Source: Candidatus Limnocylindria bacterium
GTDB taxonomy: Bacteria; Chloroflexota; Limnocylindria; QHBO01
DNA: 64,000 bases
Reading direction: 5' to 3'
Assembly (NCBI GenBank): GCA_035708065.1
Contig: DASSTC010000049.1
Span: forward strand, 1,694-65,693
In this document: in pieces, positions 16,503 to 39,570 of the stretch
Numbering within the stretch: position 1 is the first letter of the stretch
Layout: the number at the start of each line of letters is the position of its first letter
Program-made: the position numbers and the translations under genes
The notes under the pieces: generated by a model
What the model was told of the DNA's origin: nothing
Seen by the model: only the letters and a program-made list of their open reading frames with translations
Database searches by the model: none

Positions 16503-16578
16503 TGGTGGAGCTGGGGGGACTCGAACCCCCGACCCCCTGCATGCCATGCAGGTGCTCTCCCAGCTGAGCTACAACCCC
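16503..16578 (-). tRNA. tRNA-Ala (anticodon GGC)
   Basis: Reverse complement GGGGTTGTAGCTCAGCTGGGAGAGCACCTGCATGGCATGCAGGGGGTCGGGGGTTCGAGTCCCCCCAGCTCCACCA folds as a cloverleaf with the G3:U70 alanine identity pair, anticodon loop AT-GGC-AT, T-loop GGTTCGAGTCC, encoded CCA. Confidence 0.9.
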
Positions 16579-27469: not shown

Positions 27470-27545
27470 TGGTGGAGATGAGGGGACTCGAACCCCTGAC
27501 CCCCGCGATGCGAACGCGGTGCTCTCCCAGCTGAGCTACATCCCC
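27470..27545 (-). tRNA. tRNA-Ala (anticodon CGC)
   Basis: Reverse complement GGGGATGTAGCTCAGCTGGGAGAGCACCGCGTTCGCATCGCGGGGGTCAGGGGTTCGAGTCCCCTCATCTCCACCA: G3:U70, anticodon loop TT-CGC-AT, encoded CCA. Confidence 0.9.
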
Positions 27546-27577: not shown

Positions 27578-27593
27578 TAGAACATCCGTTCTA
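27578..27593. promoter_or_regulatory. LexA operator (Cheo-type SOS box, TAGAACATCCGTTCTA) embedded in the imuA promoter
   Basis: Perfect GAAC-N4-GTTC palindrome 13 nt upstream of the imuA ATG; the identical 16-mer recurs upstream of dnaE2. Flanking TTGCTG ... TATATG are plausible -35/-10 elements with the box in the spacer. Confidence 0.75.
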
Positions 27594-27605
27594 TATGATC
27601 GACCG

Positions 27606-28403
27606 ATGCACACGCAGGCTGCCCGTCCTCTCACCGATGTCCTCGAGGCGCTGCGCGAGAAAGGCCTGCGCAAGGGGGTCGGACCGATGCCCGGGCAGGT
27701 CGACGGGCCGTCGATCTCCACCGGCCATCCTCGGCTCGACGACGCGCTGCGCACCGGCGGCTGGCCTCGCGGCTCCCTCGCCCTGCTCGATGCGCCGCTC
27801 GGCAACGGCGCGACCTCGCTGGCGCTCGCCTCGCTGGCCGCCTGCCAGGCGGCCGGTGGCCTCGTCGCCTGGCTCGACCTCGAGGGCAGCTTCGACCCGT
27901 CGACCGCTGCCCGTGCGGACGTCAACCTCGAGTGGCTGCTGCTGGCACGTCCGCGTGACACCGGCGAGGCGGTGGAGCTCGCCGCCTGGCTGGCACGCAC
28001 GCGCCTGCTCGACGTCGTCGTGCTGGACCTGGGCGTGGCGGCCGTCGCCTCACGGACGCTGTCACGGCTGCCGGAGCTGCTGACCCGCTTCGGCGGCATC
28101 GTCCTGGCGCTGGCTCCCGCCGCCCGCGAGACCGTCGCCGGCGTCGCCGGGATCCGCGTCATGCTCGAGCGTCGGGCCTGGCTGTCGGTCGGCCGTGACG
28201 TGGTTGGGGAGCGGGTCGAGGCGATCGTCGCGCGTCACCGCTGGGCACTGGCCGGCGCCTCGACCGAGCTCGACCTGTGGTTCAGTGAAGGCCGGCGCGT
28301 CGACGCGCTGCTTCGGTCGCTGGCTTCGCCAGTCGCCGCCCGCGACCTCGAGCACCTGCGACCGATCGACCAGCAGCCTGCCCTCCGCGTCCTCTCCGCA
28401 TGA
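27606..28403 (+). CDS. imuA: ImuA (SulA/RecA-fold translesion mutasome protein)
   Basis: ISTGHPRLDDALRTGGWPRGSLALLDAPLGNGATSLAL ... VAWLDLEGSFDP is the ImuA signature; preceded by a LexA box and followed by imuB with ATGA overlap. Confidence 0.85.
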   Translation: MHTQAARPLTDVLEALREKGLRKGVGPMPGQVDGPSISTGHPRLDDALRTGGWPRGSLALLDAPLGNGATSLALASLAACQAAGGLVAWLDLEGSFDPSTAARADVNLEWLLLARPRDTGEAVELAAWLARTRLLDVVVLDLGVAAVASRTLSRLPELLTRFGGIVLALAPAARETVAGVAGIRVMLERRAWLSVGRDVVGERVEAIVARHRWALAGASTELDLWFSEGRRVDALLRSLASPVAARDLEHLRPIDQQPALRVLSA

Positions 28404-29620
28404 TCGATGCGCGCCTGCTGGCCCTGGTCTGGCCCGACCTCCGCCTGGCCGATGCCGACGTAGCGCCCTTCCAGCCGATGCTCGACGCGCTCGACGACCT
28501 CTCCCCGAGGATCGAGGCGGTCGACGTCGGGGTGGCGCTGGTCGATATCACGGGCCTCGGAGCGCTCTTCGGCAGCGAACGCCGGATCGCGGCACGCGCC
28601 GCAGCGCTGGCCCGCGAGGTCGCGCCGCTGGACGTCCGGGCCGGGATTGGCGACAACCGCTGGCTGGCGGTGCTCGCCGCGCGCCTCGGCCTGACAGGGG
28701 ACGCGCCGCTGCGCATCCTCGATCGGTCGGAGCTTCCCCAGCTCCCGCTCACCCTGCTGCCGGCCGATCCGGCGACGCGCCAGCGCTTCTCGCTCTTCGG
28801 GCTGACGACCTTCGGGCAGCTGGCGGCATTGCCACGCTCGGCGGTCGGTGCGCAGTTCGGCGCGACCGGCGAGCGGCTCCAGCAGCTCGCGCGCGGCAAC
28901 GACCCGCGGCCACTCGTCCCGCGCCGGCGTCCCGAGCGCCTCGTCGCCGAGCGCGCCTTCGAGCCGCCGCTGAGCGACGTCGGCGCGGCCGGTCTGGCGC
29001 TTCGCGCGCTCGTCACCGAGCTCGTCGACCGGCTGCGCGACCGCCACCTGGCGCCCGGACGCGCTGCCCTCGAGCTCGAGCGCGAGGATGCGGCACCGCT
29101 GCGCATCGAGCTTGCCTTCCCGCAGCCGGCGCTCGAGCCGGACTGGATCGCGCGCCTCCTCCTGTCACGCCTGGAGGCCGCGGCCCGTGGGTCCTTGCCA
29201 AACTTCAATCAGGACCGGCCAAGGCCGCCGGACCGGTCGAGTCAAGGACAGATGCAGGCACAGGAACTGGGCAAATCTATGCCGCACAGTCGGCATCGGC
29301 CCGATACCGCCGGCCCCAACCGGCCTAAGCCCGCTGTGGTCGGAGTTTGGCAAGCAGGCGACGACGAGCCAGGCGACGACGAGCCACAGGACGAGCCACG
29401 CATCGTGGGCATCGGTCTGGCCTTCGACCGGCTGAGCGACCCGCAGAGCCGCCAGCTGGCCGCCTTCGAGCCGCAGGCCGGTCGCTGGGAGGAGCTGCGC
29501 TGGTCGCTGGAGCGGGTGCGCGCGCGGTTCGGCGACGGCCGCCTGTGGCGTGCCGAGCACGTCCGCCCGAGCGCGTCGCTCGCCGAGCAGCGGTCGCGCC
29601 TGGTCGACATCGGACCATGA
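28400..29620 (+). CDS. imuB: ImuB (inactive Y-family polymerase-like mutasome subunit), carrying an in-frame palindromic-element insertion
   Basis: N-terminal RLLALVWPDLRL ... VALVDITG ... RAGIGDNRWLAVLAA Y-family fold lacking catalytic acidic residues; ImuA/ImuB/DnaE2 context. Confidence 0.85.
   Translation: MIDARLLALVWPDLRLADADVAPFQPMLDALDDLSPRIEAVDVGVALVDITGLGALFGSERRIAARAAALAREVAPLDVRAGIGDNRWLAVLAARLGLTGDAPLRILDRSELPQLPLTLLPADPATRQRFSLFGLTTFGQLAALPRSAVGAQFGATGERLQQLARGNDPRPLVPRRRPERLVAERAFEPPLSDVGAAGLALRALVTELVDRLRDRHLAPGRAALELEREDAAPLRIELAFPQPALEPDWIARLLLSRLEAAARGSLPNFNQDRPRPPDRSSQGQMQAQELGKSMPHSRHRPDTAGPNRPKPAVVGVWQAGDDEPGDDEPQDEPRIVGIGLAFDRLSDPQSRQLAAFEPQAGRWEELRWSLERVRARFGDGRLWRAEHVRPSASLAEQRSRLVDIGP
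29194..29354. repeat. small palindromic insertion element (TIR CTTGCCAAACT / AGTTTGGCAAG), in frame inside imuB
   Basis: 11-bp perfect terminal inverted repeats with imperfectly complementary extension to ~30 bp; a second copy with the same termini occurs in frame in dnaE2 (37541-37720). Confidence 0.65.
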
Positions 29621-29871
29621 CCAGGCTGTATGCGGACCATCCGCTGGTCCAGGTCGAGACCGATGCCGCCGGGACGCCGACCCGCCTGCGGATGGACGGC
29701 ATCGGTCATGGGGAGGTGGGGATCTGCAACCGCTGGCGCGTCGACGACGACTGGTGGCGCGCCCCGGTCGCGCGGCTCTACTTCAAGCTGGTGACGCGCG
29801 ACGGCCTGCTGTGCACGATCTTCCTCGACGAGATCCGCGGCACCTGGCACCTCGAGCGCATCTTCGACTAG
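29617..29871 (+). CDS. hypothetical 84-aa protein translationally coupled to imuB
   Basis: ATG overlaps the imuB stop (ATGA); strong GC3 bias; Trp-rich (NRWRVDDDWWRAP); no family recognised. Confidence 0.55.
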   Translation: MTRLYADHPLVQVETDAAGTPTRLRMDGIGHGEVGICNRWRVDDDWWRAPVARLYFKLVTRDGLLCTIFLDEIRGTWHLERIFD

Positions 29872-35586: not shown

Positions 35587-35602
35587 TAGAACATCCGTTC
35601 TA
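35587..35602. promoter_or_regulatory. LexA operator (TAGAACATCCGTTCTA) in the dnaE2 promoter
   Basis: Identical 16-mer to the imuA box (18-bp identity including the flanking TA), 14 nt upstream of the dnaE2 ATG; TATACT -10-like hexamer overlaps its 3' edge. Confidence 0.75.
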
Positions 35603-35616
35603 TACTGCACGGTCCG

Positions 35617-38600
35617 ATGCCGACGCCGGACGACCCCGCCGCCTACTGCGAGCTGCACGCGCACAGCAACTTCAGCTTCCTCGACGGCGCGAGCCACGTC
35701 GAGGATCTGGTGGCCCTGGCGGCGCTCCTCGATCTCCCGGCGCTGGCGATCACCGATCACGCCGGCCTGTACGCCGCCGTCCGGCTGGTCAAGGCAGCCG
35801 AGCAGACCCAGACCGATGCCGCACGGTCCGCTGGCCTCTCCCCGGTCCGCCCCATCATCGGCCTGGAGCTGTCGATTCCCCGTGACGAGCACGAGCTGCG
35901 GCTCGCGCGTCGCGGTCGCAAGCTGAACGACCCGCTGCGTGGCGAGCGCGCCAGCCGCGGCTGGCCGGGCGAGCTGCATGCCGGACCGATGCCCGGCGAC
36001 CATCTCGTGCTGCTGGCACGCGATGGCGACGGCTACACCGCCCTGTCGCGCCTGGCCAGCCGCGGCCATCTCGCCGGGGAGAAGCAGTTCCCGATCTTCG
36101 AGCGCTCGCTCGTCGAGGCGGCGCTCGACGAGGCACGCGGCCACCTCATCGGGCTGTCCGGCTGTCGCAACGGCGAGGTGCCGCGCCGCCTGCTGGCCGG
36201 CGACGACGGCGAGGCGCTGGCCACGGCGCAACGCTGGGCGAGCCACTTCCCGGAGGGAGGCTTCGGCGTGGAGCTCAGCCATCACCTGCAGCCCGACGAC
36301 GACTGGCTCGTCGCACAGCTCGCCGAGCTGGCGCGGCGCGCCGGGCTGCCCACGGTGGTCACCAACGAGGTGCACTACGCCGAGCCCGGCGGGCATCGGC
36401 TTCAGGACGTCCTCGTCTGCATCCGCCACGGGGCGACGCTGACCGAGGCCCGCGAGCTGCTGCTGCCGAACGCCGAGTACCGGCTGAAGTCAGCGGCCGA
36501 GCTCGCAGCCATCGGTGCCGTCCTGCCCGAGGCGAGTGCGCGCCGGGCGTGGCGGCAGGGGATGGCCGAGGCGGCCCGCATCGGTCAGGCCTGCCGGCTG
36601 GATCTCAATTTCGAGCGCTATCGGTTTCCGGGCTTCACGGTCCCCGAGGGCGAGACGCCGTTCTCATATCTGTACCAGCTTGCACACGACGGCTTACTGC
36701 GCCGTTACCGGCCCATTACCAAGCGCGCACTGCAGCAGCTGACCCACGAGCTGGACATCATCGAGCGGACGCACCTCGCCGAGTTCTTCCTGATCGTGTG
36801 GGACCTGATGGAGTTCGCGCGACGGCGCGGGATCATCGGGCAGGGGCGGGGGAGCGCCGGCGACTCGATCGTGGCCTACTGCCTGGGCATCACCAAGGTC
36901 GATCCGATCGAGCACAAGCTGCTCTTCGAGCGCTTCATCAACGAGGCGCGCACGCTGCCCGACATCGACCTCGACTTCGACGTCAACCGCCGCGAGGAGG
37001 TGATCCAGTACCTGTACACCACGTACGGCGCGGATCACGCCGCGATGGTCTGCACCATCGTCACCTACCGGGCCCGATCGGCCGTGCGCGAGGTGGCCAA
37101 GGCGCTGGGCTTCCCGGCGGCATCGGTCGACCGGCTGGCCAAGGCGCTCGACACGCGCGATGCCTCGGACGTTGCCCGTGACCTGGCGTTGGACGGCTCG
37201 TTCGCCTGGCTCTTCGACGAGCTGGGGATCGACATGGATGCGGCGGCGGTGCCACCCGGCCGCGACGGTCGCGGCCAGCCGGTCTCGGAGGGCGGCTGGT
37301 ACCCGCCGAAGCGGCCGCGCGTCTTCGACCAGTCGGTGACCGCCATCCGATTCGAGGCGACCCAGACGAAGCGCTACGCTGCGGGCGTTGTGCCCGAGCA
37401 CTTGCCGCAGCCCCGCGACACCGGGTCGCCCGGTCCGGCCAGCGAGCGGCGCGCCGTCGTCCGCGTCGATCCGGAGAGCGGGATGCCGATCGAGGAGCGA
37501 CGTGCGCGGTCGGTGATGTTGATCGCTGGCGGTCCGCAACCTGGCCAAACTTCAACCAGGATCGGCTTAGACAAAGACAAGGCGTCCGGGATGGGTGGCG
37601 GCGACGGAAATCGGCCCGCAAACCCCGCAAATCTTGGCACCCAAGGCGCTCGGAAGCCATCCGCGGCCTCGGCGCCCGGTACTCGCCTGCCTAAGCCCGG
37701 TGTCATTCAAGTTTGGCAAGAATCGGGCGAATCAGGCGCGGATGCGACGGATGCGACCGATGCCACCGATCCCACCGATGGGACCGCAGCCACGGCAGCC
37801 ACCACTCCCCACGCCGCTCCCCGCAACCGGTGGCAATGGCTGCTCCAGCTGTGCGGCGAGATCGACGCCTTCCCGCGTCACCTCGGCATCCACGTCGGCG
37901 GAATGCTGGTGACCCGCACCCCGCTCATCGACCTCGTGCCGATCGAAAAGGCGACGATGCCGAACCGGGTCGTGACCCAGTACGACAAGGAGGACATCGA
38001 GCAGCTCGGCCTGGTGAAGATCGACCTGCTCAGCCTGCGCACCCTCGGCGTGGTGGCCGATGCGCTCGACCGCATCGAGCGCGACACGCAGACGCGGCCC
38101 GACCTCGATCAACTCCCCCACGACGACCCCGACGTCTTCAAGACCATCCGCACTGCCGATACGGTCGGCATGTTCCAGATCGAGAGCCGCGCGCAGATGC
38201 AGGCGCTGCCCAAAGCCCGTCCCGAGCGCTTCGAGGACCTCGTCGTGCAGGTCGCGATCATCCGGCCCGGCCCGATCCAGGGCAACGCCGTGCATCCCTA
38301 CCTGCGACGGCGTGCCGGTGCCGAGGAGGTGACCTACCTCCATCCGAGCCTTGAGCCGATCCTCAGCGACACGCTCGGCGTGATCCTCTACCAGGAGCAG
38401 GTGATGCAGATCGCCATCGACGTCTGCGGCTACACGCCGCTCGAGGCGGACATCTTCCGCAAGGCGATGGGCAGCCATCGCAGCCATCGCGAGATGGAGA
38501 AGGAGCACGCGCGCTTCGTGACCGGCGCCCAGCGCACCGGGCTGACAGGCGACGACGCCGAGGAGCTCTTCAAGCGCTGCGGCGCATTCGCCGAGTTCGG

Positions 38601-39570
38601 CTTCGCTCGAGCGCACGCCGCGGCCTTCGCCAAGATCACCTACGACACCGCCTGGCTGAAGCTGCATTACCCGGCGCACTACTACGCCGGCATCCTCAAC
38701 AACCAGCCGATGGGCTTCTACTCCCCGGCGGTGATCGTCAACGACGCCAAGCGTCACGGCATCGCCGTCCTGCCCGTCGACGTCAACGAGTCGGCATGGG
38801 AGCACGACACCCGACCGATGCCGGACGGCAGGTTCGCCCTGCGCCTGGGGCTGAGCCAGGTCAAGGGCATCGGCGAGGCCGAGCGGGAGCGTCTCACCAT
38901 CGAACGTGCAACCGGTCCGTATCGGTCCGTCAGGGAGTTCGTGGCGCGCACCGGACTGGGCGAGCAGGTCATCGAACGGCTGATCAGCATCGGTGCCTTC
39001 GACTGGACCGATGCGCCGCGTCGCGAGCTGCTCTGGCAGCTGCGCAGCACCCTGGCCGACGCGAACCCCGCGCATCCCGCGCTGGGCCTGACCGATGACG
39101 CCCAGCGCACGCTGGGTGCCTCCCTGCCGGCGATGACCGATGCAGAACGGGTCGCCGCCGACTACCGCGACACCGGCGTCTCGCCGAATCTCCACGCCGT
39201 CGAGCTGTACCGCGAGCGCCTGGCTGGTGCCGGCGTGATCCCGGTGGCCGATGCCGGCCGGCGCCGGGATCGCTCGATGATCCGGCTGGCAGGGCTGGCG
39301 GTCAGCATCCAGCACCCGATGACCGCCAAGCACTTCGTCTTCATCGCGCTCGAGGACGAGAGCGGCATGATCAACGTCACCCTGCGGCCGGACGTCTACC
39401 AGCGCTACCGCGGCCTGCTGCATCGCCACCCGCTGCTGGTGATCGACGGCGTCCTGCAGGTGGAGGGCGAGGTCCTCAACGTCGTCGCGCGGCGAGTGCG
39501 CGGCGTCGACGAGGTCGTGGCCGAGACGACCCGGATGGATCTCACGCGGCAGCAGCGGATGTTCCGCTAG
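35617..39570 (+). CDS. dnaE2: error-prone DNA polymerase DnaE2 (ImuC), with a ~200-aa low-complexity insertion
   Basis: N-terminus YCELHAHSNFSFLDGASHVEDLV (the DnaE2-type PHP start), palm/fingers motifs (HVGGMLV, PDIDLDF), OB fold; 1317 aa against ~1050-1100 typical. Confidence 0.9.
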   Translation: MPTPDDPAAYCELHAHSNFSFLDGASHVEDLVALAALLDLPALAITDHAGLYAAVRLVKAAEQTQTDAARSAGLSPVRPIIGLELSIPRDEHELRLARRGRKLNDPLRGERASRGWPGELHAGPMPGDHLVLLARDGDGYTALSRLASRGHLAGEKQFPIFERSLVEAALDEARGHLIGLSGCRNGEVPRRLLAGDDGEALATAQRWASHFPEGGFGVELSHHLQPDDDWLVAQLAELARRAGLPTVVTNEVHYAEPGGHRLQDVLVCIRHGATLTEARELLLPNAEYRLKSAAELAAIGAVLPEASARRAWRQGMAEAARIGQACRLDLNFERYRFPGFTVPEGETPFSYLYQLAHDGLLRRYRPITKRALQQLTHELDIIERTHLAEFFLIVWDLMEFARRRGIIGQGRGSAGDSIVAYCLGITKVDPIEHKLLFERFINEARTLPDIDLDFDVNRREEVIQYLYTTYGADHAAMVCTIVTYRARSAVREVAKALGFPAASVDRLAKALDTRDASDVARDLALDGSFAWLFDELGIDMDAAAVPPGRDGRGQPVSEGGWYPPKRPRVFDQSVTAIRFEATQTKRYAAGVVPEHLPQPRDTGSPGPASERRAVVRVDPESGMPIEERRARSVMLIAGGPQPGQTSTRIGLDKDKASGMGGGDGNRPANPANLGTQGARKPSAASAPGTRLPKPGVIQVWQESGESGADATDATDATDPTDGTAATAATTPHAAPRNRWQWLLQLCGEIDAFPRHLGIHVGGMLVTRTPLIDLVPIEKATMPNRVVTQYDKEDIEQLGLVKIDLLSLRTLGVVADALDRIERDTQTRPDLDQLPHDDPDVFKTIRTADTVGMFQIESRAQMQALPKARPERFEDLVVQVAIIRPGPIQGNAVHPYLRRRAGAEEVTYLHPSLEPILSDTLGVILYQEQVMQIAIDVCGYTPLEADIFRKAMGSHRSHREMEKEHARFVTGAQRTGLTGDDAEELFKRCGAFAEFGFARAHAAAFAKITYDTAWLKLHYPAHYYAGILNNQPMGFYSPAVIVNDAKRHGIAVLPVDVNESAWEHDTRPMPDGRFALRLGLSQVKGIGEAERERLTIERATGPYRSVREFVARTGLGEQVIERLISIGAFDWTDAPRRELLWQLRSTLADANPAHPALGLTDDAQRTLGASLPAMTDAERVAADYRDTGVSPNLHAVELYRERLAGAGVIPVADAGRRRDRSMIRLAGLAVSIQHPMTAKHFVFIALEDESGMINVTLRPDVYQRYRGLLHRHPLLVIDGVLQVEGEVLNVVARRVRGVDEVVAETTRMDLTRQQRMFR
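37541..37720. repeat. second copy of the palindromic insertion element (TIR CTGGCCAAACTTCAA / TTCAAGTTTGGCAAG), in frame inside dnaE2
   Basis: Shares the termini and the internal CCTAAGCCCG block with the imuB copy; both copies end by encoding ...PKP.V..VWQ.. in the host frame. Confidence 0.65.
37738..37803. repeat. 9-bp tandem repeat (GATGCGACS x5, then GCAGCCACS x2), in frame inside dnaE2
   Basis: gatgcgacg gatgcgacc gatgccacc gatcccacc gatgggacc gcagccacg gcagccacc, encoding DAT-DAT-DAT-DPT-DGT-AAT-AAT, immediately 3' of the palindromic element. Confidence 0.7.

Follow-up and report, generated by a model that had tools for sequence, protein, structure and literature searches.

A 64-kb stretch of DNA from a Candidatus Limnocylindria bacterium (Chloroflexota; contig DASSTC010000049.1), here called the window, carries two copies of a short palindromic element, one inserted in frame in imuB and the other in frame in dnaE2. 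The element codes for nothing itself, the sole open reading frame (ORF) across it being that of its host gene. What is unusual is that its hairpin and core sequence are conserved instead of a peptide, with one and the same DNA being translated in more than one frame and, it appears, in both orientations. Sequence comparisons indicate that the arms and the core are kept by a nucleic-acid constraint that goes beyond what would be expected of a passively surviving selfish insert. We lean towards the view that this is a non-autonomous palindromic element resembling MITEs (short for miniature inverted-repeat transposable elements), which early in Limnocylindria came to occupy two loops, permissive and disordered, in SOS-restricted genes. 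It would represent a new, apparently low-copy element family whose function is unproven.

In-frame, protein-coding palindromes are a textbook oddity of Rickettsia and Wolbachia. The same phenomenon is now found in Limnocylindria, a free-living, high-G+C class of soil and freshwater bacteria. Here, the element is also unusual in being confined, so far as seen, to the large subunits ImuB and DnaE2 of an error-prone polymerase complex (ImuA–ImuB–DnaE2), and in occupying the same two sites through deep divergence. As a natural case of translated non-coding DNA, it allows testing for how long selfish hairpins persist in genes, and whether turnover, templated correction, or host use keeps them there. 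On the practical side, an insert of ~55–60 aa distorts alignments, domain models, and length-based orthology of ImuB and DnaE2 in this class, and should be masked.

Two copies of one palindromic element

The coordinates and anatomy of the two copies are as follows, in window positions:

29194–29354 (+): element copy 1, 161 bp, in frame in imuB; ImuB residues ~266–319 (LPNFNQ...VGVWQ)
29194–29227 (+): left arm of copy 1, with the outer helix at 29195–29208 and the inner-helix half GGCCAAGGCC at 29217–29226
29264–29286 (+): asymmetric core of copy 1, GAACTGGGCAAATCTATGCCGCA, read as ELGKSMPH
29321–29354 (+): right arm of copy 1, GGCCTAAGCC (29322–29331) ... GGAGTTTGGCAAG
37541–37720 (+): element copy 2, 180 bp, in frame in dnaE2; DnaE2 residues ~642–701 (PGQTSTRIGL...VIQVWQ)
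37541–37573 (+): left arm of copy 2, in another reading frame than the left arm of copy 1
37627–37646 (+): core of copy 2, GCAAATCTTGGCACCCAAGG, read as ANLGTQ
37688–37720 (+): right arm of copy 2, GCCTAAGCC (37689–37697) ... CAAGTTTGGCAAG

The original prediction, made from the window alone, described a segment of ~160 bp in imuB with 11-bp terminal inverted repeats and extended arms. This description holds: copy 1 ends in a perfect 11-nt inverted repeat (CTTGCCAAACT...AGTTTGGCAAG), and its 34-nt arms (29194–29227 and 29321–29354) are 74% complementary. The in-frame second copy proposed for dnaE2 is likewise borne out, with the two copies aligning end to end at 61% identity (E 3e-6 within the window) and having the GCCTAAGCC block and the same termini in common. 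The arms of copy 2, CTGGCCAAACTTCAACCAGGATCGGCTTAGACA and TGCCTAAGCCCGGTGTCATTCAAGTTTGGCAAG, reach a gapped alignment score of 14, compared with a shuffle mean of 5.8 (0/1000 shuffles reach 14). Allowing up to one mismatch, GCCAAACTTCAA matches three times in the window, each time at an element end, where 0.01 matches are expected. By our estimate, a perfect 11-nt inverted repeat within 200 nt is unremarkable by itself at the 71% G+C of the window. What makes the palindrome significant is the sequence that the copies share, together with their extended arms and the comparative data.

The element measures 131–180 bp and consists of complementary, inverted arms of ~32 nt, variable spacers, and an asymmetric core of ~20 nt (AACCTGGGCAAATCTATGCC). 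The arms form an outer helix of 14 bp, an internal loop of ~9 nt, and an inner helix of 6 bp (GCTTAG/CTAAGC). The expected hairpin potential is thus present, in that arm pairing beats shuffled sequences, although single-sequence DNA folding does so only modestly (z −2.4 for copy 1 and −1.6 for copy 2). Both host ORFs run uninterrupted through the element, in the window as well as in dozens of orthologues, in keeping with the proposed in-frame addition to ImuB.

Arm pairing is kept by compensatory change

An alignment of nine copies covers the 20 pairs of the two helices (14 bp and 6 bp). Standard pairs are formed in 89.4% of its cells, and in 8 of the 20 pairs both partners have changed. In 500 column shuffles, a covariation score as high as the observed one is never reached, and sliding one arm by 1–3 columns lets pairing fall to 15–48%. 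A clear example is the copy in locus L013 (related loci are cited by L numbers and homologous proteins by P numbers), which has TACGAA in both arms where others have TTCCAA or TACCAA, at the cost of changing Gly-Ile to Arg-Thr in the peptide. The two arms of one copy are also more alike than arms of different copies (identity.728 vs.659; permutation p =.006). In eight further copies, arm sequences differ strongly between lineages, while each copy is self-complementary, with at most 4 of 1000 shuffles reaching the observed scores. These comprise the ImuB types B and C described below, four DnaE2 copies, the DnaE2 copy of the window, and a 63-nt mini-derivative from L017. Together, the pairing statistics and the divergent, self-complementary arms therefore point to constraint on arm pairing and core sequence. 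On the sense strand, G.U occurs in 11 cells versus A.C in 8, giving no indication of the strand that folds, nor of RNA versus DNA as the folding molecule.

The DNA, not the peptide, is conserved

Codon positions were compared among seven ImuB copies from diverged hosts, with values given for positions 1/2/3:

Upstream flanking imuB: pairwise differences.165/.146/.42; G+C.88/.54/.91
Downstream flanking imuB: pairwise differences.195/.158/.377; G+C.79/.54/.87
Whole element: pairwise differences.451/.416/.521; G+C.64/.58/.59
Element spacers: pairwise differences.545/.501/.593

G+C at third positions (GC3) is.59 in the element versus.87–.91 in the host gene. This missing host signature and the flat variation over codon positions therefore argue that the element is free of coding-type constraint. 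Within the right arm, position 2 varies least (.33/.23/.385), and the W of the ...WQ ending is invariant in 25 type-A ImuB inserts, type A being one of the forms A, B, and C.

A common ending of the form (R/L)PKP.V..VWQ had been noted for the two copies. This stands for their 3′ ends, which are read in a shared frame (RPKPAVVGVWQ in ImuB and LPKPGVIQVWQ in DnaE2), but the likeness does not extend to the 5′ ends, where the frames differ (LPNFNQDRP in ImuB vs GQTSTRIGL in DnaE2). As the left arms are read in different frames, the likeness of the copies lies in the DNA and not in the peptide. The same is seen among orthologues, whose peptide 'types' are accounted for by translating the consensus in all six frames: the left arm gives either LPNSNQDRLR or GQTSTRIGLG, and the core AACCTGGGCAAATCTATGCC gives NLGKSM in 48 ImuB inserts, GQIY in 5 ImuB inserts, and RHRFAQV when its reverse complement is read. 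Among the DnaE2 homologues, 38 have only the NLG reading, 16 only HRF, and 2 have both; P0148, P0198, and P0240 are examples with HRF, and their sisters P0221 and P0238 examples with NLG. Going by these peptide motifs, both orientations of the core apparently occur at the DnaE2 site. The core is conserved in all imuB copies and in an untranslated copy in L005, to which we return below.

An old insertion with many empty sites

Close homologues of ImuB and DnaE2 all come from soil or freshwater metagenomes or metagenome-assembled genomes (MAGs) labelled Chloroflexota or Candidatus Limnocylindria. ImuB lengths are bimodal (~346–353 aa vs ~393–437 aa), the difference being the insert at the position seen in the window. 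Among 105 ImuB homologues with both anchors, 77 have an insert of at least 45 aa, and 28 have fewer than 25 aa at this place (empty or footprint). For DnaE2, 86 of 113 homologues have at least 45 aa between the anchors ...DPESGMPIEERRRPSV and NRWQW, with a recognisable core motif in 56 of these 86; the other 27 have a short linker. Insert-bearing orthologues are 63–79% (ImuB) or 70–92% (DnaE2) identical to the window proteins and are spread across Ca. Limnocylindria. The idea that the inserts are specific to this genome is thereby contradicted.

The segments nevertheless remain insertions, old and shared as they are. In two ImuB clades, the site holds a clean linker of 4 aa and no element. In the close relative L001/P0002 (80% identical), imuB is shorter by exactly 153 bp, corresponding to 29198–29350 or 51 codons. 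In L008, the element is missing from both imuB and dnaE2. Aligning orthologues, as had been proposed for settling the status of the segments, thus gives close relatives without the element (L001/P0002 and L008), even though most orthologues carry one. The empty clades, the exact 153-bp difference, and the interruption of DnaE2 detailed below all speak for insertion. With whole clades and close relatives lacking it, the element is dispensable.

Other inserts were seen at the same two sites. The DnaE2 proteins P0160, P0193, P0214, and P0223 form a clade with a different insert that has repeated peptide ends (MHGVNEIAPE...TPEGxDPRDLMHPMNE); from its sequence, this may be another element type at the DnaE2 site. 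In L017 (10804–10934; ERZ25039576 contig_34056), the ImuB insert SFPGPELTAKK...KFAVSSARGQ, which we call type C, has inverted arms with a perfect 13-nt match (CGGAACTAACGGC). An nhmmer profile of type A does not detect it; either this form has diverged to an extreme degree, or another palindromic element has taken the same site.

Instability at the two sites

Several proteins (P0001, P0014, P0066, P0088, and P0106) carry footprints that keep only the ends of the element. P0001 is 99% identical to the ImuB of the window, minus 42 aa in frame. In the window, this deletion is bracketed by CACAGGA repeats at 29259–29265 and 29385–29391, exactly 126 nt apart; this spacing equals the 42-aa loss, so the deletion fits slippage. 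The full allele is found in P0241, from a near-identical strain, and deletion alleles of the element therefore appear to segregate in the population. Gains are seen as well: imuB of L009 has a tandem pair, in which a type-B element (arms GTTTCCGCC..TACCA, core GAATATGCGCAAAGCTATGCC) lies directly upstream of a type-A element, and right ends are duplicated in several DnaE2 proteins. The mini-hairpin in dnaE2 of L017 (63 nt) retains little beyond the two arms. In neighbour-joining trees of the host proteins, occupied and empty sites, types A, B, and C, and forward and reverse DnaE2 cores occur intermingled in groups of close relatives. All this fits an insertion of old date that has since seen repeated deletion and duplication, along with either inversion between its arms or renewed insertion.

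Directly 3′ of each copy lies a tandem repeat in frame:

29355–29394 (+): acidic 15-nt tandem repeat AGDDEPGDDEPQDE, ×2.4, 3′ of copy 1
37741–37786 (+): 9-nt tandem repeat GATGCGACC, ×5.1, with DATDATDATDPTD, 3′ of copy 2

These repeats encode acidic or Ala/Thr-rich low-complexity sequence, and orthologues have other units and lengths at this position (e.g. ADAAPADAAP... or AEYAEYAEY).

Position in the host proteins

The element had been suggested to survive as an extra loop. In an AlphaFold model of ImuB, residues 265–330, comprising the element and the acidic tail, have a pLDDT (predicted local distance difference test) below 50, in agreement with this suggestion. The element is placed between the last helix (aa 247–264) and the last strand (aa 335–343) of the modelled little-finger region. 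Some 30 aa downstream follows an invariant QLxAF (aa 352–356), which we read as a probable beta-clamp motif. The element is translated through as a segment of ~55–60 aa, predicted to be disordered in ImuB. A sequence search of the PDB for a solved ImuB or mutasome structure returned only distant Pol IV/REV1 matches over the N-terminal fold.

In DnaE2, the element lies within a lineage-specific stretch of ~226 aa, by which PF07733 is split and which stands in place of residues 527–554 in Thermus aquaticus Pol III alpha. This stretch spans residues ~513–738 (window ~37150–37830). Conservation between orthologues is good over its first ~120 aa (GGWYPPKRP...TQTKRYA...PRDxGSPGP...VVRVDPESGMPIEER), a part that has no relation to the palindromic element and may be an unrecognised domain.

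Copies elsewhere

One further full-length copy was found outside the mutasome genes. It lies at ~5388–5527 of L005, another Limnocylindria MAG, in the spacer between sufB and sufD, in reverse orientation, and cannot be read as one ORF. It keeps both arms and the core, and its arms are the closest to the family consensus (.81–.87 identity to the arms of other copies). This reversed, untranslated copy means that the element is a dispersed DNA repeat. The expectation of additional genomic copies is met in this one case, but an nhmmer search with a five-copy profile over ~310 kb of window and related, largely syntenic DNA returned only the imuB, dnaE2, and suf copies.

Pattern scans of genome, metagenome, and viral collections contributed a single genuine copy, the one in L005. 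A profile of 25 ImuB insert peptides run against 1.84 billion representative proteins found only ImuB and three spurious eukaryotic repeat proteins; it missed even the DnaE2 copies, and so has low sensitivity for diverged or other-frame copies. A scan of viral contigs gave nine chance matches, with no full-length element among them by nhmmer, and blastn against PLSDB plasmids gave no match. Rfam (E up to 1, 27–40 kb of the window) has no match at the element. Our search of the literature turned up no description of an element of this kind, either for Chloroflexota or for imuB or dnaE2.

Origin and persistence

In the reading that we favor, transposition or recombination would have brought in the element early in the history of the class, with dispersal suggested by the reverse-oriented, consensus-like intergenic copy of L005. 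It would then have persisted as a 'nest' at the imuB and dnaE2 sites, which would owe their tolerance to being disordered loops and to the genes being switched on only by LexA/SOS control. A recombinase or transposase acting in trans probably uses the arms and core as its cis sites. Alternatively or additionally, correction templated by the hairpin, together with local turnover through re-insertion or through inversion between the arms, may keep the arms matched. The host would demand only an open frame, so that the element must stay in frame and free of stop codons, and is translated as a junk loop.

Several observations weigh against this MITE-like reading. Besides the outcome of the nhmmer search, the known sites are of just three kinds (imuB, dnaE2, and sufB–sufD), so mobility rests on one extra locus, and the family looks low-copy and mutasome-associated. 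A scan of genome contigs with the left-arm pattern GCCAAAYTYSNAYSANNNNNGGCTTAG returned three loci, namely one known imuB copy, the L005 copy, and a chance match in Pseudoalteromonas. A scan of metagenome contigs with the right-arm pattern GCCTAAGCC-N12-ARTTTGGCAAG returned one chance match in a low-G+C peptidase gene; this collection evidently lacks the relevant soils, because L009 fits the pattern yet was not returned. Both of these large DNA patterns were over-fitted to the clade of the window and missed known copies, making for a weak census. Target-site duplications were seen neither at copy 1, copy 2, or the L005 copy, nor in a comparison of filled and empty sites, although the age of the insertion could have erased them. 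No parent insertion sequence or transposase with matching terminal repeats (starting CTTGCCAAA) is present in the DNA read. Furthermore, if a purely selfish insert had been fixed since the ancestor of the class, its arms and core would be expected to be gone by now, as the spacers nearly are (~.55 differences per site). Their retention needs ongoing turnover or conversion, which is only proposed, or a host-level function. Finally, core orientation in DnaE2 is deduced from peptide motifs.

Such a host-level function is the essence of a second explanation, in which an exapted, cis-acting hairpin is kept by the host as a nucleic-acid module in both genes, lowering or coupling the expression of imuB and dnaE2. 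An mRNA stem of 14+6 bp could be cleaved by an RNase III-type enzyme, slow translation, or bind a factor; a DNA cruciform or protein site could act instead. This explanation accounts better than the MITE-like reading for the long conservation and the association with the mutasome: pairing and core have been kept by compensatory change over deep divergence while the spacers are near saturation, mini-derivatives keep just the hairpin (dnaE2 of L017, and P0066), and ImuB copies are near-constant in length (~161 nt). Both window copies moreover lie in two of the three mutasome genes (~6 of 64 kb), for which we estimate a chance of ~0.01 by length, and both operons have an identical SOS box. It has to contend with the dispensability of the element, given the two ImuB clades with a 4-aa linker and the relatives and near-identical strain that lost all or part of it. 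A core in both orientations (apparently at dnaE2, and reversed in suf) speaks against a sense-RNA function of the core, the G.U and A.C counts reveal no strand preference, and the L005 copy sits in an unrelated operon. We consider exaptation possible, though on balance unlikely. A bolder idea seems doubtful to us, in which the element, far from being a parasite in decay, is a domesticated MITE: a maintained, possibly invertible module of terminal hairpin and asymmetric core, lying in the coding sequence of both large mutasome subunits and limiting or coupling expression of ImuB and DnaE2 via mRNA or DNA structure throughout the class. It is improbable, in our view, that the palindromes were generated locally without transposition, by duplication/inversion or template switching in low-complexity linkers, with the likeness of the two copies resulting from gene conversion between imuB and dnaE2. 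This scenario would suit the left arms of the window, which are alike at 21/23 positions between imuB and dnaE2 compared with 17–19/23 to their own orthologues, as well as the abundance of tandem repeats and duplicated arm ends beside the elements and the lack of visible target-site duplications. It does not explain the full-length, consensus-like, reversed sufB–sufD copy, found in another MAG and far from mutasome genes, and leaves the same order of arms, inner helix, and core at imuB and dnaE2 unexplained by independent origin. The last candidate, a functional peptide module (LPNxNQ...NLG...PKPxVxxVWQ) mediating protein–protein contact in the mutasome, is largely refuted and has very little probability left. 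Both partners of one complex do bear the insert, and the invariant W and the least variable second position of the right arm could be taken as traces of peptide selection. Yet codon-position variation is flat and the host GC3 signature is missing, the same DNA is read in different frames across orthologues and between the two window genes, and radical residue changes accompany compensatory arm changes (GI to RT in L013). In addition, the segment is predicted to be disordered, many orthologues do without it, and an untranslated intergenic copy exists.

Relation to known palindromic repeats

The original prediction likened the element to Rickettsia palindromic elements (RPEs). The RPE-1 to RPE-10 families are palindromes of ~100–150 bp that are found in frame in genes, where the extra peptide segments are tolerated, and also in intergenic regions (Ogata et al. 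2000, 2002, summarised in PMC10969869 and PMC1779305). RPE-7 in pheT is an ancient insertion common to all Rickettsia (PMC1779305; PMC10969869), and RPEs amount to tens to hundreds per genome, in many unrelated genes (PMC10969869; PMC1779305). The element described here is similarly a hairpin-capable palindrome that lies in frame in a loop (for DnaE2, as placed by sequence) and leaves the ORF intact, it is an old insertion shared through a lineage, and an intergenic copy exists. The comparison holds for a palindrome in frame that is translated as a loop. Abundance, a trait that defines RPEs, was not seen: the element is known only at imuB, dnaE2, and one intergenic site, with two copies in the 64-kb window. 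No target-site duplication was found. Its host is a free-living member of the Chloroflexota with 71% G+C and not of the Rickettsiales. It also differs in being demonstrably read in several frames or orientations and in having arms that evolve compensatorily at orthologous sites. To our knowledge, its sequence is unrelated to the RPE families. In behaviour, the element is closest to RPEs, yet it is not a member of an RPE family, being found in another phylum, without homology, and with no comparable abundance observed.

Among MITEs, bcr1 of Bacillus cereus (~155 bp) forms a long stem-loop that is kept by compensatory base changes (PMC3184786), and the Correia elements of Neisseria have a functional central protein-binding site (PMC3184786; PMC10969869). 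MITEs of this type are flanked by clear duplications of the target site (5 bp or TA) and occur in many, mostly intergenic copies (PMC3184786; PMC10969869). Like them, the Limnocylindria element is shorter than 200 bp, has terminal inverted repeats around a core, and encodes no transposase. It also shows presence/absence polymorphism at homologous sites and occurs in reverse at an unrelated locus, albeit at only three kinds of locus. Unlike them, it has no visible target-site duplication, few known copies, and mostly intragenic sites.

The ERIC/IRU and YPAL sequences are enterobacterial imperfect palindromes of ~127–168 bp with a conserved central core, found in either orientation and in some cases fused to ORFs. 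The sufB–sufD copy of L005 resembles these in its placement in a transcribed operon spacer. However, they are enterobacterial, essentially extragenic, and multi-copy, and the element has no sequence similarity to them and no Rfam match. REPs are individually palindromic, extragenic units of ~35 nt, and REPINs are doublets of these. In the REP/REPIN–RAYT systems, maintenance is ascribed to a TnpA-like protein that is encoded once and acts in trans; these repeats can be inherited vertically over long periods and insert without target-site duplication. A hairpin-forming repeat with long vertical inheritance and no target-site duplication is common to these systems and the element, which differs in being intragenic, in having arms that are not self-palindromic, and in the lack of a RAYT gene in the loci read.

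The mutasome locus and neighbouring features

The host genes and their promoters are arranged as follows:

27578–27595: SOS-type box TAGAACATCCGTTCTATA upstream of imuA, 18 nt, GAAC-N4-GTTC
27606–28403: imuA-like gene with a RecA fold (Pfam RecA)
28400–29620 (+): imuB, 406 aa (Pfam IMS/IMS_C)
35587–35604: SOS-type box TAGAACATCCGTTCTATA upstream of dnaE2, identical to the imuA box
35617–39570 (+): dnaE2, 1317 aa (Pfam PHP/DNA_pol3_alpha/finger/HHH_6), 6 kb past imuB

With a RecA-fold ImuA, a Y-family-like ImuB, and a second Pol III alpha, these genes make up an imuA–imuB–dnaE2 SOS mutagenesis cassette. The TAGAACATCCGTTCTATA boxes are of the Gram-positive LexA type and overlap a TATA-like −10, suggesting that LexA binds and controls both the imuA and the dnaE2 units. 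The matching boxes in front of imuA and dnaE2 thus divide the cassette into two units, 6 kb apart and each apparently under SOS control. The boxes sit in the promoters, and none was found when a LexA-type box was sought within the element.

An ORF of 84 aa without a Pfam match (29617–29871, +) starts with an ATG that overlaps the imuB stop codon (ATGA). A small ORF is kept 3′ of imuB in every related locus read (L001, L003, L007, L008, L009, L011, L012, L013, L015, L016, and L017), and the 84-aa ORF may be an uncharacterised fourth component of the cassette. In L013 (17320–20492), gene calling yields dnaE2 in three pieces, the frame changing from DPESG to NRWQW; this is a pseudogene or an assembly error. 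Directly upstream of imuA lies a tRNA-Ala(CGC) gene (27470–27545, −); a sub-threshold Rfam 'tmRNA' match corresponds to this tRNA and was dismissed as an artefact of the tRNA-like domain. A second tRNA-Ala gene, with a GGC anticodon, is located at 16503–16578 (−).

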